A DNA stretch of 4,411 bases, from assembly GCF_003334385.1 (NCBI RefSeq), contig NZ_QOWN01000086.1; one strand, given 5' to 3'. A model generated the notes under the pieces. It searched no databases. It saw only the letters and a list, made by a program, of their open reading frames with translations, and was not told the origin of the DNA. The stretch comes from Escherichia coli. Its GTDB lineage: Bacteria > Pseudomonadota > Gammaproteobacteria > Enterobacterales > Enterobacteriaceae. Positions 473-803 of this stretch are shown here, in pieces; within the stretch, counting starts at the first letter, position 1; each line of letters begins with the position of its first letter. Made by a program: the position numbers and the translations under genes.

Positions 473-586
473 CTGGCCAAAAGCCTCAAAACCCCTGAAG
501 ACCTCAGCCAGTTTGATCGTCTGCTGAAAAAGATCAGCGTTGAAGCCGCACTCAATGCAGAGATGATGCATCACCTTGATCGATAG
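473..586 (+). pseudogene. IS256 (Mutator-type) family transposase, N-terminal ~37-codon remnant
   Basis: Plus-strand frame between the stop at 470-472 and the stop at 584-586 translates to LAKSLKTPEDLSQFDRLLKKISVEAALNAEMMHHLDR*. This matches my recollection of the conserved N-terminus of enterobacterial IS256-family transposases (…LKT.EDL.QF.R.L.K..VE.ALNAE.T.HLGYEK…). Similarity stops at HHL and is followed immediately by a stop, so it is truncated at both ends. Confidence 0.45.
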
Positions 587-757
587 GAATTAAAACCCAA
601 AAAGATTAAAAAAACACCACAAAACGGATGTTTCTTCAACACCACTTTTGCTCCATATGAACGGAACCGACGATTAAACTGGATGGTTCTGATTGATTCA
701 GGGTATGAATGGCGGTTTTTTGCTCCGTTTCCCTCAAAATGGATGCAACTTCCCCTC

Positions 758-774
758 TGCGGCTCTCAGCCGCA
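758..774. other. Perfect 7-bp stem / 3-nt loop hairpin (TGCGGCT-CTC-AGCCGCA) 30-45 bp downstream of the IS91-family tnpA stop; candidate ori-end structural element
   Basis: Directly visible inverted repeat: 758-764 tgcggct, 765-767 ctc, 768-774 agccgca. No flanking U/T run on either strand, so not a typical intrinsic terminator. IS91-family ends are known to carry hairpin-forming repeats. Confidence 0.4.
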
Positions 775-803
775 CCACCGCATCCGGGCCAGCGGCTCAT
801 GTA

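Follow-up and report, generated by a model that had tools for sequence, protein, structure and literature searches.

The 4,411-bp stretch of Escherichia coli DNA analysed here (contig NZ_QOWN01000086.1, assembly GCF_003334385.1; the whole stretch is called the window) contains a complete but decayed IS91-family element at positions 579-2380 that almost certainly entered, by transposition, an IS256-family transposase gene already present there, directly 3' of the tetranucleotide CTTG. Open reading frames (ORFs), an NCBIfam search and alignments depict the window as a mosaic of insertion sequence (IS) fragments, and no plasmid record covered at least 80% of it when the whole window was used as a megablast query. 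Our megablast collections comprised 72,556 plasmids (PLSDB) and 5,426 complete E. coli genomes; individual comparison loci are designated by L numbers. The features on which the argument depends are the following:

460-578, plus strand: left half of an IS256-family transposase remnant, about codons 4-43 (alignment to the uninterrupted L005, L008 and L009)
575-578, plus strand: CTTG target tetranucleotide adjoining the ori end (empty site in L009; CTTG or GTTC in 12 of 12 copies)
579-2380, minus strand: IS91-family element, complete but decayed, 1802 bp (12 contexts; two empty/filled site pairs)
579-660, no strand assigned: oriIS, terminal 82 bp, with an imperfect palindrome at 620-650 (conservation; 82-bp figure from PMC13181058)
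579-766, no strand assigned: non-coding tail from the ori end to the ancestral tnpA stop, 188 bp (tblastn; spacing in L001)
758-774, no strand assigned: hairpin TGCGGCT-CTC-AGCCGCA (folding, dG -10.2 kcal/mol, z = -3.6 against shuffles)
767-1941, minus strand: tnpA pseudogene, for a HUH/Y2 rolling-circle transposase (NF033538; tblastn; global alignment)
1945-2292, minus strand: intact 115-aa ORF upstream of tnpA (93% identity to the ORF of L001)
2293-2380, no strand assigned: terIS end, with an imperfect subterminal palindrome and TTCG at 2377-2380 (end alignment with 12 other copies)
2381-2430, plus strand: right half of the IS256-family remnant, GYEKNQPKPGTNSRNG (frame continued from 460-578; alignment, tblastn)

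An IS256-family gene split at a native CTTG

The frame at 473-586 translates to LAKSLKTPEDLSQFDRLLKKISVEAALNAEMMHHLDR (ending ...AALNAEMMHHLDR before a stop), and a first-pass annotation made from the letters alone had placed the end of its IS256-type similarity at ...HHL. Alignment to uninterrupted relatives bears this out: the similarity covers ...HHL and the initial base of the Gly codon that follows, stops at 578 and resumes only at 2381, beyond the IS91-like element, so that the homology running on past 580 that the annotation had named as contrary evidence is not seen. When 460-578 is joined to 2381-2430, the product aligns, with no gap where the halves meet, to three uninterrupted IS256-family relatives, namely L005, a chromosomal IS256-type pseudogene that in BLAST matches window 460-566 and then, 20 bases on, 2389-2426; L008, an intact gene of 397 aa (coding sequence 1580-2773; 423.7 bits on NF033543); and L009, an uninterrupted Salmonella plasmid copy in which the site reads CATCTTGGG. 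Both halves are in the same frame, the joined reading being ...MMHHL followed by GYEKNQPKPGTNSRNG. In tblastn searches the joined 51-aa peptide LAKSLKTPEDLSQFDRLLKKISVEAALNAEMMHHLGYEKNQPKPGTNSRNG was found in 1244 plasmid records at a coverage of at least 80% and an identity reaching 94%; several of the matches are annotated as IS256 family or ISEic2 (90-94% identity). The same peptide gave no match against NCBIfam, being too short on its own. The host element thus shows IS256-type DDE transposase homology, and the CTTG is native to it, made up of the Leu codon CTT and the G that opens the Gly codon in the conserved ...HHLGY... motif.

The reconstruction of the empty site reveals neither a target duplication nor any lost base. 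Since the two halves run in one orientation and frame, keep their collinear order and meet without a gap, the element must have entered an existing IS256 copy, as the first-pass annotation had suggested from the left half; the right half at 2381-2430, which it had missed, is the actual proof. A second empty/filled pair comes from the Escherichia albertii plasmid p2011C-4180-3 (L007), where an IS91 copy lies inside the IS630-type fragment that the window also carries. That copy, with the ends ATCGATAGG...CCTACTCG and IS630-type flanks at L007 1475-1512 and 3340-3538, sits between window-equivalent positions 37 and 38, right after a GTTC at 34-37, again with no duplication.

The IS256 gene has suffered other damage. 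Its remnant contains an in-frame TAA at 470-472 where all uninterrupted IS256-family relatives have GAA (Glu), a nonsense mutation unconnected with the IS91 insertion, and it is cut off near 459/460 on the left and, by an IS3-family fragment, near 2430 on the right. L005, L006 and L009 extend upstream to the IS256 ATG, unlike the window. Members of the IS256 family have terminal inverted repeats and generate target duplications of 8-9 bp; both ends of this copy are missing from the window.

The termini and decay of the IS91-family element

IS91-type copies are present in the thousands in the plasmids and E. coli genomes searched by megablast, with window similarity running from 573-579 to 2380-2382. 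For the boundaries we sampled copies from unrelated plasmids and chromosomes, aligning both ends and scanning them for motifs, which yielded 12 independent junctions. Homology among copies from unrelated contexts starts at 579, where the IS91-type ori end (ATCGATAGGAATT...) begins directly 3' of the CTTG at 575-578. All 12 copies carry CTTG (n = 5) or GTTC (n = 7) at the ori junction, with ATCGA(T/C)AGGAATT directly after it, and their flanks beyond the tetranucleotide are unrelated. Because the tetranucleotide occurs there in 12 of 12 junctions, the ori end can be set at 579 and CTTG 575-578 identified as the flanking target. CTTG and GTTC together occur 14 times on the plus strand of the 4411-bp window, a chance match with one boundary amounting to ~0.3%, and their presence at all 12 ori junctions is far beyond chance. 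The first-pass annotation had noted the CTTG, correctly, and had placed an IS91-type ori end next to it, downstream of tnpA; the 12 contexts agree on this arrangement, and from 579 on the sequence shares homology with the ori ends of IS91 and its relatives. These observations follow the rules described for IS91, which targets 5'-CTTG or 5'-GTTC next to oriIS and makes no target duplication (PMC13181058), the tetranucleotide of the window abutting the oriIS end downstream of the minus-strand tnpA. The 12 flanks displayed no extended target consensus upstream of the tetranucleotide. A BLAST extension to 558, suggesting a resemblance between the window flank and that of L003, corresponds to a different gene start and was treated as chance.

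IS91 reportedly needs no more of its right end for transposition than the last 82 bp along with the adjoining tetranucleotide (PMC13181058). The equivalent oriIS of the window (579-660) is strongly conserved in the alignment, and 575-660 is 98.9% identical to copies on enterotoxigenic E. coli and Shigella sonnei plasmids. At the other end, the ter palindrome GCAGTC-GTCA-GGCTGC (2358-2373) is imperfect. Single-strand folding of the 82-bp ori end and of the ter end gave energies no better than those of shuffled controls; the imperfect subterminal palindromes of the literature are supported here by inspection, not by thermodynamics. The ter end of IS91, on its orf121 side, is cleaved at 5'-CTCG (PMC13181058). 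All 12 other copies end in CTCG (...GGCTGCCTACTCG), versus TTCG at 2377-2380 in the window (...GGCTGCCTATTCG), a change that could impair termination and favour read-through, as in one-ended transposition, toward 2381 and beyond.

The transposase gene has decayed as well. The longest ORF left, at 804-1787, scores 244.9 bits on the IS91 family transposase model NF033538 (cutoff 125), and the HPHIH and YFGSY (Y-x3-Y) motifs are visible in the tnpA translation. The intact 395-aa TnpA proteins of L001 and L003, to which that of the window is 91-93% identical in amino acids, match it by tblastn in three pieces and two frames (residues 1-56 at 1941-1774, 54-375 at 1793-828 and 369-395 at 849-769), and global alignment against three intact copies locates deletions of 1 bp near 828-832 and of 11 bp near 1786. 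By these comparisons the gene is a pseudogene and the stop at 804 a frameshift artefact, the ancestral stop being TGA at 769-767 on the minus strand. The first-pass annotation had put the tnpA stop near 803 and estimated an ori end of ~220 bp; the stop near 803 belongs to the frameshifted ORF, while intact relatives run on to the position of 767-769, and because of this frameshift the non-coding tail measures 188 bp (579-766) instead. The same distance separates the tnpA stop (792) from the ori end (604) in L001.

The hairpin at 758-774, which the annotation had counted as part of the ori end, is real, with a perfect 7-bp stem and a 3-nt loop. That it is a functional part of that end appears quite improbable to us, even though it is stable on folding and all five aligned copies keep it: its distance from the ori terminus is 180-196 bp, which places it outside the 82 bp that are enough for IS91 transposition, and because those 82 bp and the tetranucleotide suffice it does not belong to the minimal ori (PMC13181058). 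Moreover, the five copies conserve it within coding sequence. The ancestral tnpA stop (769-767) reaches into the hairpin loop (765-767) and takes in the two stem bases next to it (768-769); since the hairpin lies across the final codons and stop of ancestral tnpA, coding constraint can explain its conservation. We also considered an intrinsic terminator, rejected for want of a T-run after the hairpin on the tnpA sense strand.

Upstream of tnpA, the intact 115-aa ORF is 93% identical to its counterpart in L001 and, by tblastn, 28% identical to the Orf121 of L003 (E 7e-10), and it keeps a C-terminal CxxC; it is a distant homologue of IS91 Orf121. Neither protein matched any model in NCBIfam. A 3-nt gap (TAA-TTC-ATG) separates this ORF from the tnpA ATG (1941-1939), in place of an ATGA overlap; in IS91, orf121 overlaps the start of tnpA by one base (PMC13181058). 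A recent paper regards orf121 as unique to IS91. The low identity of the accessory ORF to Orf121 (28%) contrasts with the ~91% identity of the neighbouring TnpA.

Over its full length the element is 90.5% identical to L001 and L002, both with an intact tnpA and a 115-aa ORF. The closest database copy is likewise ~90% identical overall, and none is closer. Of the 5,426 complete E. coli genomes, 161 contain copies that cover at least 80% of the element (a count not split by ORF type), and the best-scoring of these matches are of the 115-aa-ORF type.

Competing histories of the junction

Family membership, both boundaries, the target, the lack of duplication and the decay are all observed in the window. 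The rolling-circle mechanism that would account for them is taken from published work on IS91 (PMC13181058 and the papers cited there). In that scheme, the HUH/Y2 transposase would nick the DNA where the tetranucleotide meets oriIS, the bottom strand would be displaced up to terIS, and a single-stranded circle with ori joined to ter would form and insert 3' of CTTG or GTTC. Decay followed: tnpA acquired its two frameshifting deletions, and the cleavage tetranucleotide of terIS changed from C to T at one base. Later events trimmed the IS256 host on both outer sides, at ~460 and ~2430.

Some points weigh against this account. The mechanism is carried over from experiments on IS91, a relative that is ~90% identical. 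The interior of the element is mosaic with respect to other copies (L006, L001 and L003), and gene conversion may have taken place after insertion. Finally, G578 and G2380 are the same base, leaving an ambiguity of 1 nt, so that the element could formally span 578-2379; the L007 pair, which is unambiguous, argues for 579-2380 and disfavours this other boundary.

The most informative relatives for judging other histories are five near-identical PLSDB plasmids of ~128-139 kb, four of them explicitly of the pSTEC866 type, that share the IS256-CTTG-IS91 ori junction. They keep the IS256 ATG and 5' leader, unlike the window, which has lost everything upstream of ~460. In these plasmids, as seen in pSTEC866 (L006, 1501-3397), the DNA beyond the ter side is unrelated, the IS91 interior carries a 53-bp deletion, and the ter-proximal module is of the orf121 type, unlike the 115-aa type of the window. 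The unrelated ter side and the mosaic interior of the window element, both of which show that IS91 copies here do recombine, might suggest that one-ended transposition or recombination between IS91 copies brought the pieces together and that the CTTG junction is cargo or a rearrangement rather than an insertion. We consider this scarcely credible, since both IS256 halves flank the window element, collinear, in the same orientation and frame and with zero bases gained or lost, and neither process would restore collinear halves by chance; the rearranged state is that of pSTEC866, not that of the window.

A separate question is whether the window and the pSTEC866-type plasmids inherited one event or record two independent insertions at the same IS256 CTTG, acting as a hotspot. 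Sequence-specific target choice makes reuse of one CTTG possible, and the two differ in their upstream-ORF modules (115-aa versus orf121) and share an IS256 flank that is only ~92% identical. Two insertions nonetheless seem unlikely: the ori-proximal ~800 bp (579-1377) are 95-99% identical between the window and pSTEC866, versus 86-92% for most other copies, and only the five near-identical plasmids in PLSDB have this junction, for which one ancestral event with internal recombination is simpler. The simplest reading of these sequences would therefore be one ancestral insertion, with later recombination among IS91 copies and independent truncations. Whether there were two hits or one, insertion into IS256 at CTTG stands either way.

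That an IS91-type element should insert ori-first beside CTTG, here in an older IS256 copy, is textbook behaviour of these elements and already known, and our understanding of the IS91 family is unchanged. The value of the case lies in annotation: it provides exact ends for one IS91-family copy, assigns the orphan stretches 460-578 and 2381-2430 and the 804-1787 ORF to two known transposase genes, and gives an order of events within the IS patchwork. In addition, the clean empty/filled pairs bear out, independently and in naturally occurring DNA, the rules published for IS91, CTTG or GTTC at ori and no duplication.

Neighbouring sequences and comparison with known elements

The remainder of the window holds further IS fragments and a stretch of low GC content:

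1-~300, minus strand: IS630-family transposase fragment (NF033545, E 7e-22)
~2431-2587, plus strand: C-terminal fragment of an IS3-family transposase (NCBIfam match, weak but specific)
2601-4067: low-GC DNA, 29-30% GC, including an AraC-family regulator gene at 3234-4067
4147-4332, minus strand: C-terminal fragment of an IS66-family transposase (NCBIfam match, weak but specific)

The AraC-family regulator gene encodes 277 aa, and its best plasmid tblastn match is 45% identical. Its best NCBIfam match is HilD, far below the cutoff of that model, and the region 2600-4140 had no megablast match in the 5,426 E. coli genomes. The gene has the look of a virulence or fimbrial-type regulator acquired horizontally, and neither the plasmid nor the E. 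coli collection contains a close relative. The window copy of the IS91-family element is unable to move on its own because its tnpA is dead, but with its intact ori and CTTG it might be mobilised in trans. It is very unlikely, in our view, that the copy serves as a launch pad, with an intact IS91-type TnpA supplied in trans starting displacement at 579, overrunning the mutated ter and mobilising the adjacent DNA, including the AraC-family regulator gene.

Among known systems, the Enterobacteriaceae IS256 family (for instance ISEic2-like elements and WP_032361741.1 on pF8704-2_3) shares with the host remnant the N-terminal ...AALNAEMxxHLGYEKNQPKPGxNSRNG... block. The remnant differs from it in being reduced to ~169 bp (~56 codons), with a stop at 470-472, both ends missing and an IS91-type element splitting it.

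The inserted element has the HUH/Y2 transposase, the CTTG target at oriIS and the lack of target-site duplication of the IS91 family. With IS91 itself (X17114) it shares the order terIS, accessory ORF, tnpA, oriIS, a TnpA that is ~91% identical in amino acids, the ori terminus ATCGATAGGAATT, a ter terminus ...GGCTGCCTA(C/T)TCG, and the CTTG/GTTC target beside ori without duplication. It departs from IS91 in a DNA identity of ~90% over tnpA, below the 95% isoform threshold (PMC13181058), in a region (window 1942-2260) that is essentially unalignable to orf121-type copies, in an accessory ORF of 115 aa with a 3-nt spacer versus an orf121 of 121 aa with an ATGA overlap, and in its frameshifted tnpA and terIS tetranucleotide TTCG. 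The orf121-type copies that we retrieved are also longer, at 1828-1829 bp versus 1802 bp. An IS91 isoform has at least 95% identity and an orf121 overlapping tnpA, and the window element has neither; it is a close relative of IS91 within the IS91 family and not, by the 95% criterion, an isoform. Also comparable are unnamed orf115-type elements found on plasmids and chromosomes of E. coli and Salmonella (e.g., pM172-1.1, NZ_CP058715.1 21500-23314), with which it is collinear over 1802 bp at 90.5% identity and shares the 115-aa ORF (93% amino acid identity), the termini and the target rule. Those copies measure 1811-1816 bp, each with CTCG at its end, and an intact 395-aa TnpA is encoded by at least L001 and L015, whereas the window copy has the 1-bp and 11-bp tnpA deletions and the TTCG end.
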